From the IMG/VR virus record IMGVR_UViG_3300018080_000114: 64,000 nt of DNA; one strand, 5' to 3'. The notes under the pieces are model-generated. The model was given only the letters and a program-made list of their open reading frames with translations, made no database searches and was not told the DNA's origin. Source of the stretch: a virus. Taxonomy: Duplodnaviria > Heunggongvirae > Uroviricota > Caudoviricetes. Made by a program: the position numbers and the translations under genes. Below, one piece after another: positions 10,061 to 64,000 of this stretch (within the stretch, counting starts at the first letter, position 1; each line of letters begins with the position of its first letter).

Positions 10061-10273
10061 GTGCAAGAAGAGCTGAAGCCATTAGAGTTTCTAACGAATC
10101 TGGCCGAGGTACGCGAGGAGATGGAGCGTCAGATAGCACGGATGTTTCACATTGACGCAGCTCTACTATCTGGCGGTGATCCATTTGGTGAGCCATCCTA
10201 TGTGGAGGCTGAGCGGATTCGTCGCAGATCAATACAGGAATTGAGGAGGCTTGGGGATGAGATTTCGCGGTGA
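10061..10273 (+). CDS. hypothetical protein (70 aa), GTG start
   Basis: ORF track; GGAGG 10 nt upstream of GTG. Confidence 0.4.
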   Translation: MQEELKPLEFLTNLAEVREEMERQIARMFHIDAALLSGGDPFGEPSYVEAERIRRRSIQELRRLGDEISR

Positions 10274-10673
10274 CTATGCATTCTTGAGTAACTTCTATGC
10301 CGCATCTTTTCGGTGGGAGTGCAGGCGCTGGCCTACTGTGGAGCATGCATATCAAGCTGCGAAGAATCTGAAGTATGCGGATCTCATTCTGGAGTGTGAG
10401 ACTCCAGGGGAGGCAAAGCGCTTGGGTGGTCAGTTATCTCTGAGAGAGGATTGGGAGGAGATCAAAGTCCATGTTATGCTCTCTTTGCTGCGCGCGAAGT
10501 TCTATTACAATCCTGAATTGGCTGAGAGGTTGAAAGGGATTGAGGAGTACATCCAGGAGGACAATACTTGGGGAGATACGTTCTGGGGTGTTTGTGAAGG
10601 AGTCGGAGAAAACATGCTGGGAAGGCTTTTGATGCGGGTGCGCCAAGAGCTGTTGATTCAGGAGAAGAGATGA
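10251..10673 (+). CDS. NADAR-domain (YbiA-like) protein
   Basis: FRGDYAFLSNFY..VEHAYQAAK..W..F..L..KF motifs typical of the NADAR/DUF1768 N-glycosidase family. Confidence 0.7.
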   Translation: MGMRFRGDYAFLSNFYAASFRWECRRWPTVEHAYQAAKNLKYADLILECETPGEAKRLGGQLSLREDWEEIKVHVMLSLLRAKFYYNPELAERLKGIEEYIQEDNTWGDTFWGVCEGVGENMLGRLLMRVRQELLIQEKR

Positions 10674-12678: not shown

Positions 12679-12813
12679 TTCGTTGGTCTTCCAAGTAGGT
12701 GACATGAAGACATCTGGCCCAGCCATCGTGGAGTCCTCCCTGCTGGGGAATAAATGAGGACCAAGAGACCTACAATTGTTTCTTTAGATGCGATGATGCG
12801 AAAGGAGACAGGT

Positions 12814-13698
12814 ATGAATCAGGAAGTGGCAGAAGTCGGTGTACTCGTTGGGCGATTCCAGGTGGATGAGCTGCACGAGGGACACAAGCAATTGATCAAC
12901 AGTGTGGTGCGGAAGCACGAGAAGGTGCTCCTGTTTCTGGGTCTATCTCCAGCGAGGGTGACGCGCAATAACCCACTGGACTTTGAATCCCGGAAGCAGA
13001 TGATTCTCAACGGGTATCCGAACGTAAACGTATTGTATATCAAGGACGTGCCTTCGGATGACGTGTGGAGCAAGAACCTGGACCAGCAGATCCGAGATCT
13101 AGTCGGGCCGATGGCGACGGTGGTGCTCTACGGAGGACGTGAATCCTTCATCGATCACTACACAGGGAAGTATGACACGGAAGAAATCGAGGAGTCGGTG
13201 TACCAATCAGGGACCATAGTGCGGAAGAAGCTTGGCGCTCATGTCAAGTCACATCCATGTTTCCGTGCGGGCGTGGTCTGGGCAGCATACAATCGGCATC
13301 CGACAACATTCCCCACAGTGGACGTGGCTATCTGGAATGAGGCGTGTACTCATCTTCTGGTGGCGAAGAAGCCCAATGAGCAGCTGTATCGTTTCATCGG
13401 TGGTTTCGTCAGTCCTGGGGAATCCTTGGAAGCAACATGTCGCAGGGAGGTCGCGGAAGAGGCCCATATCGAGATCACAGATCCTCAGTATGTGGGCAGC
13501 TGTCCTATCGATGACTGGCGGTATCGTCGGGAGCTGGATGGCACAGTGACAGCCTTTTTCCAGGCCAAGCACATGTTTGGCAGACCCTTGCCGGATGATG
13601 ATATTTCGGAGCTGGCTTGGATCGAGGTGGAAGGTTTGAGAGAGAAGATCGTTGAGGAGCATCGTCCGTTGTACGACATGCTCATGAATTCCAAATAG
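12814..13698 (+). CDS. bifunctional NMN adenylyltransferase (NadM-like) / Nudix hydrolase
   Basis: GRFQVDELHEGH (archaeal-type NMNAT HxGH motif) N-terminal; Nudix box GGFVSPGESLEATCRREVAEEAHIE C-terminal; ATG after AAAGGAGACAGGT. Confidence 0.8.
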   Translation: MNQEVAEVGVLVGRFQVDELHEGHKQLINSVVRKHEKVLLFLGLSPARVTRNNPLDFESRKQMILNGYPNVNVLYIKDVPSDDVWSKNLDQQIRDLVGPMATVVLYGGRESFIDHYTGKYDTEEIEESVYQSGTIVRKKLGAHVKSHPCFRAGVVWAAYNRHPTTFPTVDVAIWNEACTHLLVAKKPNEQLYRFIGGFVSPGESLEATCRREVAEEAHIEITDPQYVGSCPIDDWRYRRELDGTVTAFFQAKHMFGRPLPDDDISELAWIEVEGLREKIVEEHRPLYDMLMNSK

Positions 13699-13731
13699 AT
13701 GCGTTGATGCAAAGTTTTGGAGGACAGAACT

Positions 13732-15111
13732 ATGAGAAAGAACATCATTCAGACGACAGACAGTTACAAGTTGGCACATTGGCAGCAGTATCAGCCGGAT
13801 ACGGAAACGGTCTACAGCTACTTCGAGGCTCGTGAGGGTGCGGAGTTCGATTCGACTGTGTTCTTCGGCCTTCAGTATCTCCTGAAGGAATACCTGGAGG
13901 GCATGGTTGTCACCCAGACGAAGATCGATGATGCTGAGCTGTTGGTCGAGCAGCACTTGGGCAGCAAGGATCTGTTCAATAGAAAAATGTGGGAGCACAT
14001 CTGGTTCGCCCATGACGGCAAGCTTCCGATCCGGATCAAGGCAGTCCCTGAGGGTACGGTCGTTCCGGTGGGCAACGTCATGATGACGGTGGAGAACACG
14101 TGTCCGCACTGTGCGCCACTGACGAATCACCTGGAAACTCTTCTGTGTCACGTGTGGCATGCTTGCACGGTGGCTACGTTGAGCCGTGAAGTCAAGAAGA
14201 TGATCAGTGTTTTTACAGAAAAAACCGCAGACAACGATGGGGCTCTGGACTTCATGCTCCATGACTTCGGATTCCGTGGTGTCTCCAGTGTCGAGGCTGC
14301 GGCTATCGGTGGTCTCGCACACCTGATCAACTTCAAGGGGACGGATACGGTTGCGGCGCTCGTCGCGGCACAGGAATACTACGGTCACGAGGGTGCAGCT
14401 GGCTTCAGCGTTCCGGCGACGGAGCACAGCGTCATGACTTCCTTGGGGCCGGATGGTGAAGAGAGGATCATCGGGCAGCTCCTGGAGGCGTATCCTACAG
14501 GCATCCTGAGTGTGGTGTCGGACAGTTTCGATATCTACAACACCGTGGAGAATATCATCGGTGGAACCTATCGTGAGCAGATCCTGGAGCGTGACGGTGT
14601 GTTCGTGGTGCGTCCTGACAGTGGAGATCCGGTGGAGACGGTGCTGCGATTGCTGGCGATCCTCTGGGAGAAGTTTGGTGGCTCACTCAACAGCAAGGGT
14701 TACAGGGTCATCAATCCGAAGGTCAAGGTCCTATGGGGTGATGGGCTGGACAAGCAGAAGATCGAGGAGATCCTGGTGGCTATCACGGATGCGGGCTGGA
14801 GCGTCGAGAACATTGCCACGTTCGGCATGGGCGGTGGGCTACTCCAGAAGATCAATCGGGATACCCAGCGGTTCGCGTTCAAGTGTAGCGCCCAGAAGCG
14901 TGACGGCACGTGGTACGATATCTACAAAGATCCCATTGATGGCAGCAAGGCGTCTAAGCGTGGGCGTCTGAAGCTTCTCCGTGGGGTCCATGGGTTCAGT
15001 ACCGTGCAGCAGGATCGTGGTGGTGAAGATCAGTTGGTGACTGTCTTCGAGAACGGCGAAATCACAAAAGAATGGAATTTTGAGGGAATTCGCGTTCGGG
15101 CGCAGCTGTAA
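13732..15111 (+). CDS. nadV: nicotinamide phosphoribosyltransferase (NadV/NAMPT)
   Basis: ~460 aa; TDSYK..H..Y N-terminal motif and DFGFRG region typical of the NAMPT family; adjacent to NMNAT as in KVP40-type phages. Confidence 0.8.
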   Translation: MRKNIIQTTDSYKLAHWQQYQPDTETVYSYFEAREGAEFDSTVFFGLQYLLKEYLEGMVVTQTKIDDAELLVEQHLGSKDLFNRKMWEHIWFAHDGKLPIRIKAVPEGTVVPVGNVMMTVENTCPHCAPLTNHLETLLCHVWHACTVATLSREVKKMISVFTEKTADNDGALDFMLHDFGFRGVSSVEAAAIGGLAHLINFKGTDTVAALVAAQEYYGHEGAAGFSVPATEHSVMTSLGPDGEERIIGQLLEAYPTGILSVVSDSFDIYNTVENIIGGTYREQILERDGVFVVRPDSGDPVETVLRLLAILWEKFGGSLNSKGYRVINPKVKVLWGDGLDKQKIEEILVAITDAGWSVENIATFGMGGGLLQKINRDTQRFAFKCSAQKRDGTWYDIYKDPIDGSKASKRGRLKLLRGVHGFSTVQQDRGGEDQLVTVFENGEITKEWNFEGIRVRAQL

Positions 15112-53382: not shown

Positions 53383-54615
53383 GTGGCTACTTGGTACTTG
53401 GATCAGTCATTTTATTTGGATCAGGAAGACTCCAGGGAGATCACTGCGGAAGCTGAGATGTCTGTTGAGCAGGTGTATCAGCACAATCCGTTTGTGGGTC
53501 GTGAATTGGTGATGGAGCATGAGTTTGAGGTGGATGTTATCGCGGATCTGCCTTTAGACTTGATGCCTCTGTTTCCGATGAAATTCCACAATTCGGAGAT
53601 TTTGCAGGATTTGGTTGCGGAATTGGGGATTCAGGTCGGAAACTGGCTGACGAAAAATGAGGACATAATTAAGCTGTTGGGACCGAACACAGTCGCATCC
53701 ACAACGTATATACGGTATCTGGGTGCATTGATTGGGGTCACATTCCCTCCTGAGGATGATTCTACGGAGGCTGAATTGAGAAAGACCCTGACGGATGCCA
53801 TTGATTGGTACAAGGTCAAGGGCACGTATGATTCGATCAATGTGATTGCCGCTATTAACCAGCTGGCTATTAACATCTGGGACATGTATACGAATGACTA
53901 CGTCAATTTCTATCTGACGGAGTGGTTTGTGGGCGATGAGGATGAGAATCCACCTGGATTTGATTCGACGTACTACAAGAGTCCGCACTTTGGTGCGGAG
54001 GTGGTTTTGGATCGGGTTCGTGTCTATGGATCGCAGAACTACCTGTGGTACGCTGGTTTGAGTGACAACTTTGTGCTGCTGGTCGAGGAGACTCGTCCAG
54101 TTCATACAGTTCCTCATTACATCATCTTTTTGAATCCGAAGACGGATGAGCGTGGGAATACGATTGAGGTGAGTGGTAGTATTTTCACTAGGATCACGAG
54201 TAATTGGGTGGTGTCTCAGAAGTACTTTGATGAGGCTACGAGTGGGTCCTGGACCTTTGATGGTGGGACAATGACCTTTGACAATTCTGATGAGGGCTTT
54301 GTCAAGTCCATTACGAAGTGGGTGCTGGGGACTGGAAATTATGGTGGTGACGTGTCGGCAACGGATTTTGATATTCAGAATCCGGTTTTGACGGGAACGA
54401 TTGCTGCATCGGATATTACTCTTGATGCGGAAAAGGTCTCGTTTGAGTTCATTGTACCGAAAGCGACGGTGCAAAGTGGCATCACGGAGCTGGGGCTGTA
54501 TGTGGGTGGCACAGACACGTTGGTCTTGGCGAGTGTGTTTCCCAAGATTGATAAGACAGCGAATGAAGAGTTGCGTGTGGTTGTGGAAGTGTACAAGAGT
54601 GACTTGTCTAGCTAG
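53383..54615 (+). CDS. tail fiber-associated protein (410 aa)
   Basis: GTG start after TAGGAGAAGG; beta-rich. Confidence 0.4.
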   Translation: MATWYLDQSFYLDQEDSREITAEAEMSVEQVYQHNPFVGRELVMEHEFEVDVIADLPLDLMPLFPMKFHNSEILQDLVAELGIQVGNWLTKNEDIIKLLGPNTVASTTYIRYLGALIGVTFPPEDDSTEAELRKTLTDAIDWYKVKGTYDSINVIAAINQLAINIWDMYTNDYVNFYLTEWFVGDEDENPPGFDSTYYKSPHFGAEVVLDRVRVYGSQNYLWYAGLSDNFVLLVEETRPVHTVPHYIIFLNPKTDERGNTIEVSGSIFTRITSNWVVSQKYFDEATSGSWTFDGGTMTFDNSDEGFVKSITKWVLGTGNYGGDVSATDFDIQNPVLTGTIAASDITLDAEKVSFEFIVPKATVQSGITELGLYVGGTDTLVLASVFPKIDKTANEELRVVVEVYKSDLSS

Positions 54616-54626
54616 AGGAGAGTGCG

Positions 54627-55889
54627 ATGCCTGCTGATGTTGGAAATCAGACATTGAGTTTGAAATACGGGGCTCCGGGAAATTCAGCGGAGGTGAACAG
54701 ACGGTTTGTGGATGTCCGACCTGTGGGCATCTATGAGGGTGGTGCGCTAGAGGTGGTGGACAATACCCATGCGAGCTTGTCGGCGTTGGTATGTGAGATC
54801 GGTGATGGCACACATCAGGTGAGGGTGGCGACTACTACCAGCGTGAGCGTGACAGTTGGATCGGCCACACCATACATCATTCTGCGGTGGTCATATACTG
54901 GAACCACAGCTGACTACATGGAGATTTTGGCGGTGGCTAGTGGTAGCATCGTGTCCACTGATCTAGTGGTGGCGAAGTGTACGTTCACAGGTGGAGGCGC
55001 ATTGAATGGGTTTGATTATGGTGACAGTACTCATCCTCGATCATACCCGAATACACAGGAGTTTTCATTGAAGGTGGTTCCGGCCACAGGCATGAAGATG
55101 TATGTGAATCCTGGTTATTTTCAGGACAATGCCCAGTCGTTCTTGGTTCCATTCCAATTGACGGACGCATTGACGGCTCCTGCATCAAATAGCCAGATCT
55201 TCTTGGTGTACATCGATCCTACCACTGGCACTGTTGGCGTGGATACATCGGGTGTGGCAGCGGCATCTCCTACAGCTCCGTTGTATAATGGAAGGGTGGT
55301 CTTGGCTGAGGTGACTATCACTAGCACAACCACTAGCATCAATGCATCTATGATCAAGGATGTGCGTCCCCATGTGACATATGGCCAGGAGAAGGTGGAT
55401 GGAACAACCATTGAGAGATCTTCGGCGGGTGCCTTGAAGAGATCAGCTCCATACTATATGTTGACAAGGACAATTGGTCATCAGCTTAGTGGAAACACAT
55501 CGTGGACAGCTTTGACTAATTACGGGACAGTGATCAATTCAAATGGCATCACAGTGGCATATGGTGGAATCTTCACGCTTCCGGCTGGTCGCCTGTACGA
55601 GCTGTCTTACACAATCATGTTCCAGAGGCAAACCAGTTCTCCAGAGGTGCGAGCAAGATTTCATGTGTTGTCTGGGGATCTGAGTTGGTGGCTTGCAGAC
55701 GATGATTACAACCAATCAATCACACGATGTGAGATCGAAAATGATCCGGCAGCGCACAACACACTTTCGTATAAGGGCCTGATTCTTCCGGCCACTAATA
55801 CGACTTTGAGATTGGAAGTGATCACACAGGATGCCTCGGCAGCGGATGCGCATGTGTGGGCATGCACAATTGCAATGGTTGGCAGATAG
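54627..55889 (+). CDS. tail fiber protein, paralog A (420 aa)
   Basis: Clear paralogy to the next gene (PVGIYEGGALEVVDNTHASLSALVCEIGDG vs PVGIYSGGYLTRVTDSRVSLSAMVAEIRDG; GRVVLAEVTI vs GKMVLAEVTV). Confidence 0.55.
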   Translation: MPADVGNQTLSLKYGAPGNSAEVNRRFVDVRPVGIYEGGALEVVDNTHASLSALVCEIGDGTHQVRVATTTSVSVTVGSATPYIILRWSYTGTTADYMEILAVASGSIVSTDLVVAKCTFTGGGALNGFDYGDSTHPRSYPNTQEFSLKVVPATGMKMYVNPGYFQDNAQSFLVPFQLTDALTAPASNSQIFLVYIDPTTGTVGVDTSGVAAASPTAPLYNGRVVLAEVTITSTTTSINASMIKDVRPHVTYGQEKVDGTTIERSSAGALKRSAPYYMLTRTIGHQLSGNTSWTALTNYGTVINSNGITVAYGGIFTLPAGRLYELSYTIMFQRQTSSPEVRARFHVLSGDLSWWLADDDYNQSITRCEIENDPAAHNTLSYKGLILPATNTTLRLEVITQDASAADAHVWACTIAMVGR

Positions 55890-55899
55890 GAGAGAAGAG

Positions 55900-57060
55900 A
55901 TGGGATCAACTAATCATGGAACACAGACAATCACCTGGGGCTATTTCCAGGAAGCGAAGGCTGCGAATTGGGGCAAGCGGCTGTTGGACCAACTTCCGGT
56001 CGGAATTTACAGTGGTGGATATCTGACTAGGGTCACTGATAGTAGGGTGTCACTGAGTGCTATGGTGGCTGAGATTCGAGATGGGAGTGCTCAGGTTAAT
56101 GTGAGAACAGCGGCAGCTGCTACTCTGGATTCGACTACATTGGACAGTGGATCGATTTCATCTGCTACTCCATACTTGGTTCTCCGTTGGTCTTTTGCGG
56201 AATTGGTGGCGAACTATGTGGAGGTGCATGCGATTGCAAGTCTCTCTGCGCGTCAGCAAAATGATATCGTGGTTGGCAAGTGTGTGTTTGAGGGTGCCAC
56301 GTTGAGCAGCTTTGATTACTCAGATAGAACGTTTCCGATGGTGTTGGAGCGGAATCTGAGTGTGGAGGCAACAACGGCGTCTGAGATGTATGTGCGCGTG
56401 CGTGGTGGCACTGTGAATACGGGATCAGCTAAGGTGCGGATTGGGGATCAGAAGGTGGGTCCGTTTGCGGTTCCTTCTGCGTCGAATTCCCGTATCGATC
56501 TAGTCTATGTGACTTCCGCAGGAGCTATTGCAATTGCACAGGGCACTGAGGCAGTGAGTCCTTCGGCTCCAGCGTATGGTGGGAAGATGGTCTTGGCTGA
56601 GGTGACAGTGGTCAATGGTGACACTGATCTGACGTGGGATCGAATTGCGGATGCTAGATCCTTTTTGGCTTATCCCCAGTCGAGCACTACGCAGATGATT
56701 GAGTCCACAGGTACGGACAACATCAGCTACAACACAGCGGCATGGGCTACCATCACAGATATGTCCGTGAGCATCACTACGATTGGTGGCATTGTTCACA
56801 TAACTGGAAGTGTGCCACTGCGTTGGGGTGCGGATCGGTATTACAACAGTTTCCGATTGAGAATTGATGGGGAAGTGAAGTGGACTCGTCGGTTGGAGAC
56901 AGGTGATGATCAGGGCTACGTGAATCTGGATGTGAATTACTATGCCTCTTTGGCGGCTGGGGTTCATACAGTTGATTTGCAGTGGTATCGGGATCAGGTG
57001 ATCATGTACCAAGATGGCTCATCGTATATGAGATATCTGCAAGCGGTGGAGCTGAGCTAG
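55900..57060 (+). CDS. tail fiber protein, paralog B (386 aa)
   Basis: Tandem duplicate of 54627..55889, diverged in C-terminal (distal) half; ATG after AGGAGAGAAGAG. Confidence 0.55.
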   Translation: MGSTNHGTQTITWGYFQEAKAANWGKRLLDQLPVGIYSGGYLTRVTDSRVSLSAMVAEIRDGSAQVNVRTAAAATLDSTTLDSGSISSATPYLVLRWSFAELVANYVEVHAIASLSARQQNDIVVGKCVFEGATLSSFDYSDRTFPMVLERNLSVEATTASEMYVRVRGGTVNTGSAKVRIGDQKVGPFAVPSASNSRIDLVYVTSAGAIAIAQGTEAVSPSAPAYGGKMVLAEVTVVNGDTDLTWDRIADARSFLAYPQSSTTQMIESTGTDNISYNTAAWATITDMSVSITTIGGIVHITGSVPLRWGADRYYNSFRLRIDGEVKWTRRLETGDDQGYVNLDVNYYASLAAGVHTVDLQWYRDQVIMYQDGSSYMRYLQAVELS

Positions 57061-57065
57061 TGGGC

Positions 57066-57806
57066 ATGTCTTTCAATACACATAGGGGAACCGTTGTGAA
57101 GAGGATAGGTCCTAAGCCGTGCAAGGCACGTCCAGTGTCGGATGTGCTTCCGTCTGGTGCTTGGAGAGGTGAGCGGTGTGTGATTCTCGGTGGAGGTCCC
57201 AGCTTGGAGGGATTTGATTTTGGGGTTTTGGATGGGATTCACACAATTGGGATCAACAAGATGTTTCAGTTGTACCCGTCTGAGGTTCACTATTCCATGG
57301 ACCACACGTTCTTTGAGATGGTGGAACTGAATCGTAAGCCGTCCCAGGATCACTATGAGCTTCATCGGGAGTGGAGCCAGTATGATGGGATCAAGGTGTT
57401 CATGCGAGCCCAGCGGCAAGTGTTCAATGAGAACGTGTATGTAGTGCAGGACCTGGGCAAGAAGGCGGTGAGTCTGGACCTAGGCGTGGGCATCTACAAG
57501 GGTAACAATTCTGGGTGTGGAGCGTTGATGTTGGCAGTGGCGCTTGGGTGTACTCAGATTGGATTGTTGGGATATGATTTCAAGGTCATTGAGAATGGAA
57601 ACGCAGTGAAGACTCATTGTCACGAGGGGTATGATCGTGGAACAATCAGGAGCCTATTGCGGAATCTGGAGAACTTCCGGAACTGCATTGAGGAGATAGG
57701 TCCTTGCTTGGGTGCGATGGGAATTTCTGTTTTCAACCTCAACCCAGACAGTGCATTGCAATGCTTTGAGAAGCGGTCTTGGGGTGGGTTTTTGTCTGGT
57801 GTCTAA
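57066..57806 (+). CDS. PF01973 (MptE/Maf/DUF115)-like transferase, copy 1
   Basis: CVILGGGPSL and NSGCGALMLAVALGCTQIGLLGYDF motifs of the Maf/MptE-like family. Confidence 0.5.
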   Translation: MSFNTHRGTVVKRIGPKPCKARPVSDVLPSGAWRGERCVILGGGPSLEGFDFGVLDGIHTIGINKMFQLYPSEVHYSMDHTFFEMVELNRKPSQDHYELHREWSQYDGIKVFMRAQRQVFNENVYVVQDLGKKAVSLDLGVGIYKGNNSGCGALMLAVALGCTQIGLLGYDFKVIENGNAVKTHCHEGYDRGTIRSLLRNLENFRNCIEEIGPCLGAMGISVFNLNPDSALQCFEKRSWGGFLSGV

Positions 57807-57826
57807 TTCCGTATAGGTGGGAAGAA

Positions 57827-58585
57827 ATGAAGAAGGCATGCTATATTGTTGGTGGCGGTACGTCCCTAACCACATTCGACTATTCATGGTTGAATGGGAA
57901 GGATGTGATAGCTGTCAATCAGTCTCTCTTTCATCTCCCCAATGCAAAGTACTTCGTGACCATGGACTATACATGGGTTCTGCGAAATGGGATCACAGGT
58001 GACAAGTGTCGCACGGACAAGCGGCGTGAGTTTTCTCGGCATCCAGCAGATAAGATCTTTGTGGTGGGATTCAGTGGAGATCGGTTGCAGGTTTTGGATG
58101 AGCGTCACATTGTGGACAATGCGCATGGTATCACATATGATCTGAGCCCGTTTGATCGTGTGGTGCATGCGGCAGCATATGGTGGTGTCGGCCCTTCCTT
58201 TGATGATTTCCATTGTGGAAGTGACTCAGGTTATGCAGGTCTTCAGTTGGCCGTGGTGCTGGGATACACAGAGATCTACTTGCTTGGGTATGATTTTCGT
58301 GCGACTGTGGGAGGCACACATTTTCATAAGGACTATGCGGATCGAGACAGGCGAAAGTACGATGCGAAATTGCAAGAGTTCATGGTGCCATATCCTATGG
58401 CTTTGGAGGTGATGCGTAAGGAATACGGAGTGCAGGTGTTCAGTTGTTCAGAGATGAGTAGATTGAATCGCTATGTTCCATTTCGGAAGGTGGGAGTGAC
58501 AAATGAGGCTGAGCGTTGTAATGACATATCACAACAGGCCGAATCAGTTCCGGTTGACTCTGAAATCGATCCTGGAGCAGTGTGA
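57827..58585 (+). CDS. PF01973 (MptE/Maf/DUF115)-like transferase, copy 2
   Basis: CYIVGGGTSL and GSDSGYAGLQLAVVLGYTEIYLLGYDF; paralog of preceding gene. Confidence 0.5.
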   Translation: MKKACYIVGGGTSLTTFDYSWLNGKDVIAVNQSLFHLPNAKYFVTMDYTWVLRNGITGDKCRTDKRREFSRHPADKIFVVGFSGDRLQVLDERHIVDNAHGITYDLSPFDRVVHAAAYGGVGPSFDDFHCGSDSGYAGLQLAVVLGYTEIYLLGYDFRATVGGTHFHKDYADRDRRKYDAKLQEFMVPYPMALEVMRKEYGVQVFSCSEMSRLNRYVPFRKVGVTNEAERCNDISQQAESVPVDSEIDPGAV

Positions 58586-59258
58586 TCCAGATCTGGAACT
58601 GATTGTGGTGGATGATGCTTCGGATGAGGGCCTGAGGGCCAAAACTGTCATCGAGGAGCTTGGCGCAGAAGTGACGTTGGTGGAGGTGTCGAACGAGGAG
58701 AAGTACTGGATCAACCCATCTGTCCCTTACAATATGGGGTTTGCAGAGGTCACTGGGGACGTGGTGGTGATTCAGAATGCGGAGTGTGTGCATGTGGGGC
58801 CGATTCTGCGTGACATGCGTTCTCGTGTGGGATCAGGCAGTTATGTGGCAGCTCCTTGCTACGCTTCTACGGAGGCTGAGTATGGGCTCTTGTCGAAGGT
58901 GGATGGGGGCAATGTGGGAGGGCAGGTGCGGAGTATCGTGCAGCCTTTCAAGAAGGAACAGTGGTATCATCATCCAAGTGCGTTTCCAAAGTGGTATCAT
59001 TTTTGTGCGGGCATTACGACGAAGAATCTTCAGAAGTTGGGCGGGTTCAATGAGGCATATGCTCTTGGGTACTGTTTCGAGGACAATGATTTCTTGCTTC
59101 GCATTCGAAAGAAGCTTCGCGTGTGCATTGACAGTACGTCGAATGGTTTGTTTGTGGTGCATCAGTGGCATCCGAAGAATCCCGGTCTCGTGGGTGGTTG
59201 TCCATTGTGGGAACGAAATCGGAAGATCTACGCGAAGATGGAAGAGATGTTGCGATGA
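58503..59258 (+). CDS. family 2 glycosyltransferase (GT-A)
   Basis: LSVVMTYHNRPNQFRLTLKSILEQ...LELIVVDDASDEG signature. Confidence 0.75.
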   Translation: MRLSVVMTYHNRPNQFRLTLKSILEQCDPDLELIVVDDASDEGLRAKTVIEELGAEVTLVEVSNEEKYWINPSVPYNMGFAEVTGDVVVIQNAECVHVGPILRDMRSRVGSGSYVAAPCYASTEAEYGLLSKVDGGNVGGQVRSIVQPFKKEQWYHHPSAFPKWYHFCAGITTKNLQKLGGFNEAYALGYCFEDNDFLLRIRKKLRVCIDSTSNGLFVVHQWHPKNPGLVGGCPLWERNRKIYAKMEEMLR

Positions 59259-59270
59259 TGGAGATCAGGG

Positions 59271-59558
59271 ATGAAGGGTTTGTTTGTTCAAGGGATCTTG
59301 TATCGATTGCACAACGTGCTGATACATGCAATCGTGGTGTTTGCTATGACTGGGCAGTGGCATGCAGCGATAGGGACAAGTGTGGCATTTAATCTGCTGA
59401 ACATCGTGTTGTATTACCACTTCCACTTGTGGATGGATTGGATAGGGAGGAGAAAGAATGGGAAGGATAGTGTGGTTGACAGGACAGTCTGGGGCTGGAA
59501 AGACGACGGTGGCGAGGGAGATTCAAAAGAGCTGGAACTGCGTAATTCTGGATGGTGA
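59271..59558 (+). CDS. small hydrophobic protein (extent uncertain; 3' end overlaps next gene)
   Basis: ORF track; two hydrophobic helices in first 60 aa. Confidence 0.3.
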   Translation: MKGLFVQGILYRLHNVLIHAIVVFAMTGQWHAAIGTSVAFNLLNIVLYYHFHLWMDWIGRRKNGKDSVVDRTVWGWKDDGGEGDSKELELRNSGW

Positions 59559-60225
59559 TGAGATGCGGGAAAGTATCTCGCTGGGCGCTGGGTTTTCTAG
59601 AGAAGATCGTCGGGAGCACAATCTGAGAGTGGCTCGGTTGGCGAAGATTCTTTCACAGCACCATGATGTGATGGTGACAGTCATTGCTCCGATGCGTGAA
59701 GTGCGGAGAGAGATCTCAAATGTATGTGACCCTGAGTGGATCTACATCAAGCGCACAATGCCGGAACGTGAAGGTCACTTCTATGAGGAGCCTACGTGCG
59801 AAGAGTTTATGGATAATCCAGGTGGGTTCTGTATGGTGAACCATGATTACATTGGAGTGAAGCAGAGTGCGGATACAATCCGAAAGCATTTGGGTGTGTT
59901 GAAGGATAACAAGTACAGCCTGTTCATTGGTCGGTGGCAACCTCTTCATGAGGGACATAAGACTCTATTTGATCAGGTGCGGAAAGAGGGCAAGAAGATT
60001 CTCATCGGCATTCGTGACACGGAGATTTCGGAGAGCAACCCATACAGTGTTGCGGAGCGGAGGGCGATGATCAAAGAGCAGGTCCCGGATGCGGAGGTGG
60101 TGGTGATTCCGGACATCGCAGAGGTATGCTATGGTCGTGGAGTGGGCTATGGTATTCGTGAGATTCGCTTGGATGCAGCTATCGAGGACATCAGTGCGAC
60201 GAAGATCAGAAAGGGTGAGCTATGA
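59458..60225 (+). CDS. adenylylsulfate (APS) kinase domain fused to HxGH nucleotidyltransferase domain
   Basis: N-terminus VWLTGQSGAGKTTVA + LDGDEMRESISLGAGFSREDRREHNLR (CysC-like); C-terminus GRWQPLHEGH (NMNAT/cytidylyltransferase-type HxGH) and ISATKIR; RBS GGAGGAGAAAG. Confidence 0.65.
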   Translation: MGRIVWLTGQSGAGKTTVAREIQKSWNCVILDGDEMRESISLGAGFSREDRREHNLRVARLAKILSQHHDVMVTVIAPMREVRREISNVCDPEWIYIKRTMPEREGHFYEEPTCEEFMDNPGGFCMVNHDYIGVKQSADTIRKHLGVLKDNKYSLFIGRWQPLHEGHKTLFDQVRKEGKKILIGIRDTEISESNPYSVAERRAMIKEQVPDAEVVVIPDIAEVCYGRGVGYGIREIRLDAAIEDISATKIRKGEL

Positions 60226-61076
60226 GATTTGTCCCTAAGCAGGCGTTCTTTTACTGGGGTGGATCGGTCCTTCCGTATTTGCGGTACATGGCCCTGTATT
60301 CCTTCCGGAAGTATAATCCGGACTGGAGGATGGTGCTATATGTGCCAAAGAAGCTGACGACTACTCAGTCATGGGTGACCTTTGAGAATAAGGAAGGATT
60401 GGACACAGAGGACTACATGGATCGGCTGGAGAATCTTGGTGTCCATGTGGCTCCGTTCGATATGGAGGCCATTGGGTTCTCTAATGACCTGCCTGAGGTG
60501 ATCAAGTCTGACATCATTCGCCTGTACCTGCTGTCTACGGTCGGAGGCTTGTGGAGTGATTCTGACATCCTCTACTATCGTCCTCTGTCTGCGGTGTTGC
60601 GGGAGACGGATCATACGGCATACTTCTGCTATCGTCGTGGTGGGCCTACACAGGACCCTACGCCAGCGAATGGGCCTCCATACCACAGTATTGGGTTCCT
60701 GGCGGGAGCGCCGGGGAATCGGCATTACACGAAGCTGTTTGAGCTGGCACGAAACAACATCAACCTGGAGCAATACCAGAGTGTGGGATCTCCGTTCTAC
60801 AAGACGGTGATTGATATGGGGGCTTCAGATGTGTTCAACTTCGATATTCGCACCGTGTATCCGACACGTGCGGCTTTGGTGATCTTCACAGAGCCTGCTG
60901 GTCGATTCATGAATGAGGTGATTCAGCCGGATGTGATCGGGATTCATTGGTATGCGGGCGCTCCAGAAGCGGGGAAAGCACAGAACTTTCTCACGGAAAA
61001 AACGTATAGAGACTATGACAATATCGTGTGTCACCTTTTGAGGTATGTGAACGATGGCGAAGCTCTTGGACGTTAA
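60222..61076 (+). CDS. DXD-motif glycosyltransferase (GT32 / Gly_transf_sug-like)
   Basis: FFYWGG...NPDWRMVLY...GGLWSDSDILY pattern of the sugar-binding-region GT family. Confidence 0.55.
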   Translation: MRFVPKQAFFYWGGSVLPYLRYMALYSFRKYNPDWRMVLYVPKKLTTTQSWVTFENKEGLDTEDYMDRLENLGVHVAPFDMEAIGFSNDLPEVIKSDIIRLYLLSTVGGLWSDSDILYYRPLSAVLRETDHTAYFCYRRGGPTQDPTPANGPPYHSIGFLAGAPGNRHYTKLFELARNNINLEQYQSVGSPFYKTVIDMGASDVFNFDIRTVYPTRAALVIFTEPAGRFMNEVIQPDVIGIHWYAGAPEAGKAQNFLTEKTYRDYDNIVCHLLRYVNDGEALGR

Positions 61077-61905
61077 GCAGGATTTTGATTGGGCAGAGAC
61101 ACGAAGCAAGAAGTTGGTCGTGTTCATGCCGAACTACGCACACTCTCATTTGACTGAGTTTGCTATCAATCAGATTCGAACGAAGGTCGATCCCAAAGAT
61201 TATCTGTTGGTGATCGGAAATGACAATGTGAATCACAATTGGTCGCATCTGCGTAATAAGAATGTGCGATCATTCACATTGCTCCATGACCATCAGGGGC
61301 CGAGGAACGGCGCGTTCATTCGGAATTACTTCCTGAGACGGAATGAGAGTGAGATCACCTTGCAGAAGGATGGAGAGGTCATCATGACCGGAGACTTCAT
61401 CTATCGGGCGATCCATTGTCACACACCGTGGCGAGCTGGGAAGGTGTGGGTGGTGCCTGAGCATCGCACGAAAGACATGCTGGAGGTGACAGGTGGTGTC
61501 AATTGGGCGTTGGAGCATATGCCTCTGACTCGTCTTGTGATTCCGATGGTGGCTGAGAATGCGTACCATGCAAAGGAGATCATTGAGTTGGCTGATGGGC
61601 AGGTAAACCCATCGACCTACTTCCACTATGCATATGCAGCGCCCACCAGTGTTTTCCAGAAAATCGGAGGGTATGACGAGGACTATGTGAGCTATGGATG
61701 GGAGGACGCAGATATGTTCTGTCGGCTGTACCATCTGGGTGTGTATTTGGTTCCTGATGCGGCATGTGCTGCGGTTCATCCCTGGCATCCGAGAGCGACA
61801 GACTGTACTCCGGAGCAGCTTCTGGCTATGCGTCAGTTGTTTGTGACGAAGAGTCCAGCAGACTTCTTCCGGAACAAGACTCGTGAGTGGGGGAGCGGCG
61901 TATGA
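61054..61905 (+). CDS. GT-A fold glycosyltransferase (GT2/GT7-like)
   Basis: GGYDEDYVSYGWEDADMFCRL resembles the GWGxEDxD C-terminal motif of GT2/GT7 enzymes. Confidence 0.45.
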   Translation: MAKLLDVKQDFDWAETRSKKLVVFMPNYAHSHLTEFAINQIRTKVDPKDYLLVIGNDNVNHNWSHLRNKNVRSFTLLHDHQGPRNGAFIRNYFLRRNESEITLQKDGEVIMTGDFIYRAIHCHTPWRAGKVWVVPEHRTKDMLEVTGGVNWALEHMPLTRLVIPMVAENAYHAKEIIELADGQVNPSTYFHYAYAAPTSVFQKIGGYDEDYVSYGWEDADMFCRLYHLGVYLVPDAACAAVHPWHPRATDCTPEQLLAMRQLFVTKSPADFFRNKTREWGSGV

Positions 61906-62177
61906 AATGGATAAGAGGTGGGCATTTTGAGTTTGTGGTCATGGCGGTGATACCTCCCAAAAAGACAGATCCATGGCTTGCAAGTGATGAGGTCTTTGAT
62001 GAACATAGGTTTTGGACGGGTAAGGAGTGGTCGCACTTTGATAAGGATGCGATGACATTTGAGTTGCTTTCATCTGCACAGGGTGTGGCAGAGACGATAG
62101 TGGGCGAGGGTGAGATATGTGTCGGCAAAGTGTTCTTAGAGACGACAATTGAGTTTTGTGGGAGAGCGGATGCATGA
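61902..62177 (+). CDS. small hypothetical protein (91 aa) upstream of radical SAM gene
   Basis: Translationally coupled on both sides. Confidence 0.35.
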   Translation: MKWIRGGHFEFVVMAVIPPKKTDPWLASDEVFDEHRFWTGKEWSHFDKDAMTFELLSSAQGVAETIVGEGEICVGKVFLETTIEFCGRADA

Positions 62178-63043
62178 AATTTCCGTGGCACAAATATCAA
62201 GAGTTACCACTGAGCAGGCGATACACGCTTCAGATCTTCATCACGAATCGATGTGATTTGCAGTGTACAGGATGCTTTGCTCGTAAGGTGATGAAGGATA
62301 GCGTGGACATCGACCTGGATGAGTATGAGCGTGCGGTGGATGTGTTCTGGAGACGTGGTGGGCGGCAGATCAACCTATTGGGTGGTGAGCCCTTGTTGCA
62401 TCCTCATCTGGAAGCGATGCTGATCTACAATCAGAAGTTGGGACTGAAGACCACCATCTACACGAACGGTCGCAAGTTGGATGGGTTCAGCGGGGAGGCA
62501 TTTGCGAAGTACAATGCGAAGTTGCGAGTGTCACTGTATGGCACATTCCATCCGGGGAAGGGCATTCACAATGTGATGGATGCACAGGTTCCGTTCGATG
62601 CGAACTTCATGGTGTCACGGACCACCACAGTGGAGGACATGTTGTCCACAGCGGAATCGGTGGAGAGCACTGGGATGTGCAAGGTGTTCTTCATCTCCAG
62701 CCTACGTGAGTTGGACAATCCGAGAAAGGAGTTCTTCGATGATACGGATCTGACGATGCCAGTCATTGAGTACAAGGAGCTGGTGCATCAGTTCATGTGG
62801 CAGTATGAGGGTGACATGGACATTCATGTGTCGAAGCGCGGTGTGTTTGAATCAACGAAGACATTGCCAGATTGTCACTGCAACTTTGCGAACTACATCA
62901 TTGGCGGGAAGATCATTCAGTGTCCGTATGATCTTGTGAATGAGGTGTACTGTCGAGATTACACATTGGGAAAGAGACCGTGCCACCACAACTCAACCTG
63001 CCTCATGTCAAAGGTGGTCTATCGAAGGAAGAGAAATGGATGA
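62174..63043 (+). CDS. radical SAM enzyme with C-terminal Cys-rich (SPASM/twitch-like) domain
   Basis: CDLQCTGC (CxxxCxxC) near N-terminus with GGEPLL; C-terminal CHC...C...C...CHHNSTC cluster. Confidence 0.7.
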   Translation: MKFPWHKYQELPLSRRYTLQIFITNRCDLQCTGCFARKVMKDSVDIDLDEYERAVDVFWRRGGRQINLLGGEPLLHPHLEAMLIYNQKLGLKTTIYTNGRKLDGFSGEAFAKYNAKLRVSLYGTFHPGKGIHNVMDAQVPFDANFMVSRTTTVEDMLSTAESVESTGMCKVFFISSLRELDNPRKEFFDDTDLTMPVIEYKELVHQFMWQYEGDMDIHVSKRGVFESTKTLPDCHCNFANYIIGGKIIQCPYDLVNEVYCRDYTLGKRPCHHNSTCLMSKVVYRRKRNG

Positions 63044-63887
63044 TTGGACGAGACTGAATGAGCAATATCCGCATGTGGCTTTCAACTGGAAGGGATTCGA
63101 TGGGAAGGTGCATAGTCGAGAGAATGGCTACCGCATCTTCTACCCAGGAGAGCCATACGTTGGGATGCCTGAGAACTGGGATCTGCAAATGCTGCGTCAG
63201 TATGAGCATGTGATTACGTGGAATCCGGCGTTCTTTGAGATGTATAAGCCCATTCTGAACATGCATCTGGTGCAGGGTGTGTTGGGGTGTAATCCTCCAG
63301 CGCCATTGGCCGAGAGGGTGCCGTTTAAGGAGAAGATCAATGGGGTGTGTTGCCTGAACAACGTGTATCAGAATGGACGTCCAGGCTGCATCTATTGGTT
63401 GCGGAATGAGGTCATGCAGAACATCGGCGGTGATCTGGTTCGGCATGTGTGGGCTCCGAAGGATCGTGAATGGGGTGGCAGCTGTTATCAGGGTGAGGTG
63501 GAGTCACCTATCCATCACAGTCATCCAAATCAGCTGCGTAAGATCAGTGAGTACAAGTTCTGTCTGTGCCTGGAATCCTCGTATCATCCCTTCTGGACAC
63601 AGGGGTTCATGACAGAGAGGATCTTGAACTGCTTCCGAGCGGGGACGATCCCGATCTACATGGGATGCTACAACATCCAGGACTATGTGCCTGGAGGATC
63701 GTTTGTTAACTTTGGAGAATTCTATGGACAGACAAGAGATTATAACGGGCTATCGCAACTGCTACAACAGATGTCAGAGAATGAGGATTGGTATGAAGCG
63801 GTTGTGGAAAGTAATCACCGATGGGTTAGCACGTGCAAGCTGGGAAGTGTGGCTGTGCTGGAAGATCTGATCAAGTCACTGGGATAA
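63036..63887 (+). CDS. GT10-like (alpha-1,3-fucosyltransferase-family) glycosyltransferase
   Basis: KFCLCLESSYHPFWTQGFMTERILNCFRAGTIPIYMG...VPGGSFVNFGEF matches the FucT C-terminal catalytic signature. Confidence 0.55.
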   Translation: MDDWTRLNEQYPHVAFNWKGFDGKVHSRENGYRIFYPGEPYVGMPENWDLQMLRQYEHVITWNPAFFEMYKPILNMHLVQGVLGCNPPAPLAERVPFKEKINGVCCLNNVYQNGRPGCIYWLRNEVMQNIGGDLVRHVWAPKDREWGGSCYQGEVESPIHHSHPNQLRKISEYKFCLCLESSYHPFWTQGFMTERILNCFRAGTIPIYMGCYNIQDYVPGGSFVNFGEFYGQTRDYNGLSQLLQQMSENEDWYEAVVESNHRWVSTCKLGSVAVLEDLIKSLG

Positions 63888-63897
63888 GGAGAAGAGT

Positions 63898-64000
63898 ATG
63901 GGATGGGAACCGAATCCAACTGGTATTTTGAAGCTGGCGTTTCGTAAGGCATACGAGACCATGGGTCCAGGCTTAGCGTTGGAGTTTGGCGTAGGCATGG
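63898..64000 (+). CDS. start of a further gene (partial, runs off window)
   Basis: ATG after AAGGAGAAGAG; open to the window edge. Confidence 0.3.
   Translation, partial: MGWEPNPTGILKLAFRKAYETMGPGLALEFGVGM

Follow-up and report, generated by a model that had tools for sequence, protein, structure and literature searches.

Organisation of the cluster and its flanking genes

Positions 57066–63887 of the window (the whole 64,000-nt stretch of DNA analysed, derived from an uncultivated, contractile-tailed phage) are filled on the plus strand by ten co-directional ORFs. Neighbouring genes mostly overlap, and their spacing ranges from -83 to +20 nt with the exception of a single 199-nt gap (59259–59457). 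The initial annotation of a contiguous carbohydrate-modification cluster directly 3' of fibre genes was borne out, its domain calls being reproduced by Pfam profile search, but the end it had placed at 63887 was not: contig L099, which matches the window at 100% identity along 8750 nt, carries the cluster ~7 kb past the window end. The whole island spans ~14 kb and ~20 genes, the cluster in the window forming its first half. Related viral contigs carry homologs at 38–62% amino-acid identity with the gene order preserved, which indicates that the cluster genes are real.

Two putative tail-fibre paralogs on the plus strand precede the island. Paralog A (420 aa, 54627–55889), which follows a baseplate wedge gene (phrog_219), is a candidate acceptor and not an enzyme; the stop of paralog B (386 aa, 55900–57060) is separated by 5 nt from the first transferase gene at 57066. 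The N-terminal 260 aa of A are 39% identical to B, while the C-termini are unrelated. Paralog A has no family match and no tblastn match in 50,697 phage records, and its position is conserved in relatives. Of the three fibre genes proposed initially, these two appear fibre-like, whereas the third (53383–54615) gave only a weak match to P2 gpI. The structural proteins showed neither a Ser/Thr-rich tail nor anything else that would obviously mark an acceptor.

The first two genes of the island encode Maf/GT42-like transferase 1 (246 aa, 57066–57806, plus strand) and its paralog, transferase 2 (252 aa, 57827–58585, plus strand), with 31% identity between them. Transferase 2 matches PHROG 4603 (1.5e-22) and Pfam CST-I (28.8 bits; cut-off 25 bits), and its motifs GGGPSL, NSG, LLGYD and HxH are common to CcrColossus gp126 and XacN1 ORF375. 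The closest structure to the pair is a protein (flagellin) glycosyltransferase, the Magnetospirillum Maf (5mu5), and GT42 lipooligosaccharide sialyltransferases are resembled almost as well. The Maf-like label assigned earlier therefore holds structurally, but for minimal proteins of 246–252 aa that are devoid of the additional domains found in the Maf chain (632 residues).

The GT2-family glycosyltransferase gene (251 aa, 58503–59258, plus strand; Pfam Glycos_transf_2 4.7e-12, from residue 4) starts with an 83-nt overlap with the preceding gene, has homologs in L013–L015 at 38–48% identity and appears shorter in public gene calls (217 or 234 aa). The 199-nt stretch that follows holds small unconserved ORFs only, a 95-aa ORF at 59271–59558 giving a weak DUF2061 match, and no promoter or terminator signal above chance was found there or elsewhere in the cluster. 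After the kinase::nucleotidyltransferase fusion gene (59458–60225, plus strand), the start of a DXD glycosyltransferase gene (284 aa, 60222–61076, plus strand) overlaps the fusion's stop (ATGA). Its Caps_synth/GT32-like region scores 30.3 bits with Pfam Caps_synth and 24.3 bits with Gly_transf_sug, both barely over the cut-offs, and homologs in relatives are 44–62% identical. A GT-A-type transferase with a Glyco_transf_7C-like C-terminal region (283 aa, 61054–61905, plus strand; 28 bits) also matches PHROG 26327 and 2456 and has homologs at 38–56% identity.

A 91-aa ORF (61902–62177, plus strand), called as a gene in public assemblies, overlaps each neighbour by 4 nt; neither a family match nor a homolog in other loci was found for it. 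The radical-SAM enzyme (289 aa, 62174–63043, plus strand; Pfam Radical_SAM 1.4e-14 and Fer4_12) shares a CxxxCxxC motif and four C-terminal Cys with a 56%-identical homolog in L014, and resembles viperin-like, MoaA, SuiB and BlsE proteins only weakly. Where an auxiliary Cys cluster was suggested earlier, the four conserved Cys are present, and no SPASM model matched. The last gene encodes a GT10 (alpha-1,3-fucosyltransferase-like) transferase (283 aa, 63036–63887, plus strand; Pfam Glyco_transf_10 7.2e-11) whose matches to H. pylori FucT and human FUT9 fall in the donor-binding region, with homologs in relatives at 32–53% identity. The earlier GT2, GT32-like DXD, GT-A and GT10-like assignments were all recovered by Pfam.

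Beyond the GT10-like gene, in window-equivalent coordinates (L099 coordinate + 55250), a plus-strand TylF-like O-methyltransferase gene (63898–64545) runs off the window at 64000 and is completed on L099. The contig continues with two Sulfotransfer_2 proteins (64547–65248 and 65251–65991), both over the Pfam cut-off and both with PKxGG(T/M)S and R(D/E)PxxRxxS motifs in sequences read by eye, and an Epimerase_2 protein (2-epimerase, 65960–67030). After 60-aa and 285-aa ORFs come a trio of SDR dehydrogenase (68080–69054), cupin 3,5-epimerase (69051–69506) and RmlD-like reductase (69503–70333), and a further DXD transferase (70335–71051). The sulfotransferases and methyltransferase, together with the APS-kinase-like domain described below, strengthen the earlier suggestion of a possibly sulfated or fucosylated glycan.

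No hydrophobic segment of the kind expected for a membrane span was observed in the cluster proteins of the window, the one hydrophobic value of 1.80 belonging to a conserved Rossmann strand of Maf/GT42-like transferase 1, and no flippase, polymerase, initiating transferase or any other membrane protein was found in the ~14-kb island. Shared island genes and structural genes are similarly diverged between relatives (42–63% identity) and G+C content is uniform; the island has therefore been resident for a long time and is no recent import.

Conservation of the fibre-adjacent arrangement

The synteny search proposed with the initial annotation revealed that no fewer than seven uncultivated relatives share one gene order, in which the baseplate and fibre paralogs precede the Maf-like pair and then a variable enzyme set. 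In L013–L017, L023, L095 and L096 (the last being the JGI copy of the L013 contig), the baseplate wedge gene, an Ig-domain protein, the fibre paralogs and the Maf-like pair are followed by a varying complement of transferases, methyltransferases and radical-SAM enzymes, and in L101 a variable island with a sulfotransferase begins downstream of the pair. The Maf-like pair is the only invariant part of the island among relatives.

Comparable arrangements were identified in two phages of unrelated lineages, Caulobacter phage CcrColossus (gp126–gp131) and the Xanthomonas jumbo phage XacN1 (ORF375–368), in which a Maf-like homolog (26% identity) likewise lies beside tail proteins. In CcrColossus, gp126 comes immediately after tail proteins gp123 and gp125 and ahead of transferases and a methyltransferase, while ORF375 is the first gene of an operon ending in tail genes. 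Unlike the window, both phages have only one Maf-like gene, and their cassettes are shorter and contain no sulfation genes. XacN1 virions show Schiff-positive (glycoprotein-staining) bands, any link of these to the genes being putative. Across 26 other viral contigs, the families that recur among 150 genes neighbouring a Maf-like gene include GT2 enzymes, sulfotransferases and methyltransferases as well as phage cement, tail and capsid proteins.

The kinase::nucleotidyltransferase fusion and its proposed role in sulfation

Both domains assigned earlier to the fusion were detected, an APS-kinase-like domain (residues 1 to ~148; Pfam APS_kinase 2e-19) and a nucleotidyltransferase domain (~149–255; CTP_transf_like 3e-9), with the correction that the latter is NMNAT-like. 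In sequence comparison with the PDB, every match of the kinase half at E < 1e-4 is either an APS kinase or the APS-kinase domain of a bifunctional enzyme that activates sulfate. The AF2 model (pLDDT 91.8) corroborates this, its top 49 Foldseek matches all being APS kinases or bifunctional enzymes aligned via the APS-kinase domain. Sequence and predicted structure thus agree in indicating an APS-kinase-like kinase half; the cut-offs of the NCBIfam APS-kinase models were not reached. The profile of the nucleotidyltransferase domain matches archaeal/NadM NMNATs best (1.5e-11), with no ATP sulfurylase match at E<=1. The motifs DGDxxR, GFSxxDR and IAP, read as APS-binding, are invariant or nearly so in the fusion family, in which both domain orders occur (81 vs 21).

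It can be proposed that the fusion supplies PAPS to sulfotransferases, a role supported by the adjacency of kinase::nucleotidyltransferase and sulfotransferase genes in no fewer than four other viral lineages. Relatives of the fusion have a sulfotransferase within 4 kb in four independent groups (7 of 79 viral loci), compared with 1 of 80 control loci, and relative to L014 the fusion and two sulfotransferases are both gains of the window's island. A rather doubtful alternative is that the fusion is unrelated to sulfation and acts as an NAD or nucleotide-cofactor enzyme within a glycan island whose sulfotransferases would use host PAPS. The resemblance of its second domain to NMN adenylyltransferases would fit such a role, as would its membership of a large family found mostly away from glycan genes, including phages with none nearby. 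In Xylella phage Sano the fusion's neighbour is a NADAR homolog 43% identical to window 10251–10673, and the L101 sulfotransferase has no fusion within 20 kb. Against this, the phage already possesses a canonical NadM-like NMNAT/Nudix protein (12754–13698) beside Nampt (13717–15111), the kinase half matches only APS kinases with near-invariant motifs, and there are the gain of the fusion together with two sulfotransferases relative to L014 and the co-location of both gene types in four other viral lineages.

PAPS synthase is an APS kinase fused to ATP sulfurylase, and NodPQ/NodH and RaxPQ/RaxST are bacterial sulfation cassettes. As in the phage island, sulfate activation genes are there encoded with a sulfotransferase. 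The animal PAPS synthase has the kinase first, as does the phage fusion, and both pair an APS kinase with a nucleotidyltransferase-superfamily domain; in the phage, however, this second domain is a ~105-aa NMNAT-like one and not ATP sulfurylase. Fibre-like proteins sulfated by co-encoded enzymes have been predicted before, in bacterial operons where phage tail-collar proteins are accompanied by dioxygenases, sulfotransferases and PAPS synthetase (Iyer et al. 2010, PMC2938197). Those operons differ from the phage island in being bacterial and without transferases, the sulfate being proposed to go onto hydroxylated amino acids and not onto a glycan.

Proposed target of the glycan

The best-supported reading, which we hold tentatively and at somewhat less than even probability, is that ~20 soluble enzymes glycosylate virion proteins in the cytoplasm, probably the fibres, the acceptor being suggested by genomic context. 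The two Maf/GT42-like transferases may place a linking sugar on a structural protein of the phage, with the fibres as the likeliest choice, and the GT2, DXD, GT7C-like, GT10-like and further DXD transferases would lengthen the chain in a presumed order. The 2-epimerase and the dehydrogenase/3,5-epimerase/reductase trio could provide unusual nucleotide sugars, while the TylF-like methyltransferase, the radical-SAM enzyme and the two PAPS-dependent sulfotransferases would tailor the chain, with PAPS putatively provided by the fusion. A complex oligosaccharide would thus be assembled in the host cytoplasm by an island situated within a late operon. Virion proteins are favoured because of the fibre-gene synteny in at least seven relatives, the CcrColossus and XacN1 arrangements and the lack of membrane or lipid-carrier machinery in the island.

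By itself, the Maf analogy is no proof of a protein acceptor, given the minimal size of the pair and an island free of nonulosonic-acid/CMP-sugar genes. No CMP-ulosonic-acid synthesis gene was found in the island or the window's first 23 kb, and the island differs from flagellin O-glycosylation islands in having no nonulosonic-acid synthase or CMP-transferase. The acceptor there is flagellin, whereas here it would be a phage fibre. Campylobacter Cst-I and Cst-II, the GT42 counterparts, use lipid-linked oligosaccharide acceptors and CMP-sialic acid, and the phage proteins are only 12–18% identical to them.

Of the two targets suggested initially, virion proteins or host surface glycans, the second constitutes the main rival, though an unlikely one: soluble transferases would act on host lipid-linked intermediates and remodel envelope glycans (LPS, capsule, S-layer glycan). 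If true, a possible benefit is a superinfection block or the prevention of progeny re-adsorption to debris. The GT2, GT10 and Caps_synth enzymes here, with GT11, GT25 and GT47 in relatives, are typical of O-antigen/capsule loci, and cassette variability could follow host serotypes. LPS/capsule enzymes of the GT2, GT10, GT25 and Caps_synth kinds often lack membrane spans too, and their presence speaks against virion decoration. Host-surface or DNA targets are also favoured for the transferase-rich "cell-wall/LPS" clusters of the marine cyanomyophages S-SCSM2R, S-SCSM1 and P-SSM2 (PMC12801897). These contractile-tailed phages combine many GT2, GT10, GT11 and GT25 transferases with nucleotide-sugar epimerases, their function being putative; the paper contains no mention of sulfotransferase and describes no conserved Maf-like pair after fibre genes. 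Against host remodelling stand an island of ~14 kb without an initiating phosphoglycosyltransferase, flippase, polymerase, ligase or any membrane protein, its junction with the late fibre operon by gaps of 5–20 nt, the flagellin-glycosyltransferase likeness of its sole invariant part and the recurrence of the tail/fibre-gene pairing in unrelated phages.

A sulfated oligosaccharide that stays free or lipid-linked (a signal, decoy or matrix component) is an improbable product. Sulfated, methylated and fucosylated oligosaccharide signals do exist in bacteria, e.g. rhizobial Nod factors, and the island analysis identified no acceptor, but no export or acyl-transfer genes occur in the island and the conserved fibre-gene link would be left unexplained. 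Hypermodification of phage DNA, with the glycan on a modified base as happens in phages with transferases for hydroxymethylated bases, is the least probable: virus-encoded transferases building diverse DNA glycans are known, some base-modification pathways include a kinase and a radical-SAM enzyme, and Bacillus phage SP-15, which has a sugar-bearing hypermodified thymine, is among the nearest cultured capsid relatives, but the 33 ORFs of the first 23 kb include no hydroxymethylase or thymidylate-synthase-like gene (64–73 kb inspected of a genome of at least 139 kb), the island lies in the structural and not the replication module, the sulfotransferases are of carbohydrate type, and seven or eight transferases exceed the needs of known DNA glycans.

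Phage-encoded virion glycosylation and transferase-rich phage islands in general are already known, while no description of this enzyme combination was found in the searched literature, and the earlier statement that no described phage system matches is fair for it. In mycobacteriophages, as accounts in citing papers have it (Freeman et al. 2023, cited in PMC12619734 and PMC12801897), phage transferases modify structural proteins of the same phage within the cytoplasm, as proposed here, and the glycans are proposed to shield the particle. According to the same accounts, these siphophages infect actinobacteria, encode far fewer transferases (two for phage Maravista) and bear glycans on the C-termini of capsid and tail-tube subunits; the citing passages report no Maf/GT42-like pair, sulfotransferase, radical-SAM or nucleotide-sugar genes.

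Overall, the product of the island could be a methylated, sulfated sugar chain, most plausibly decorating the phage's own particle. As the cassette downstream of the Maf-like pair differs between related phages, each would display a different glycan.

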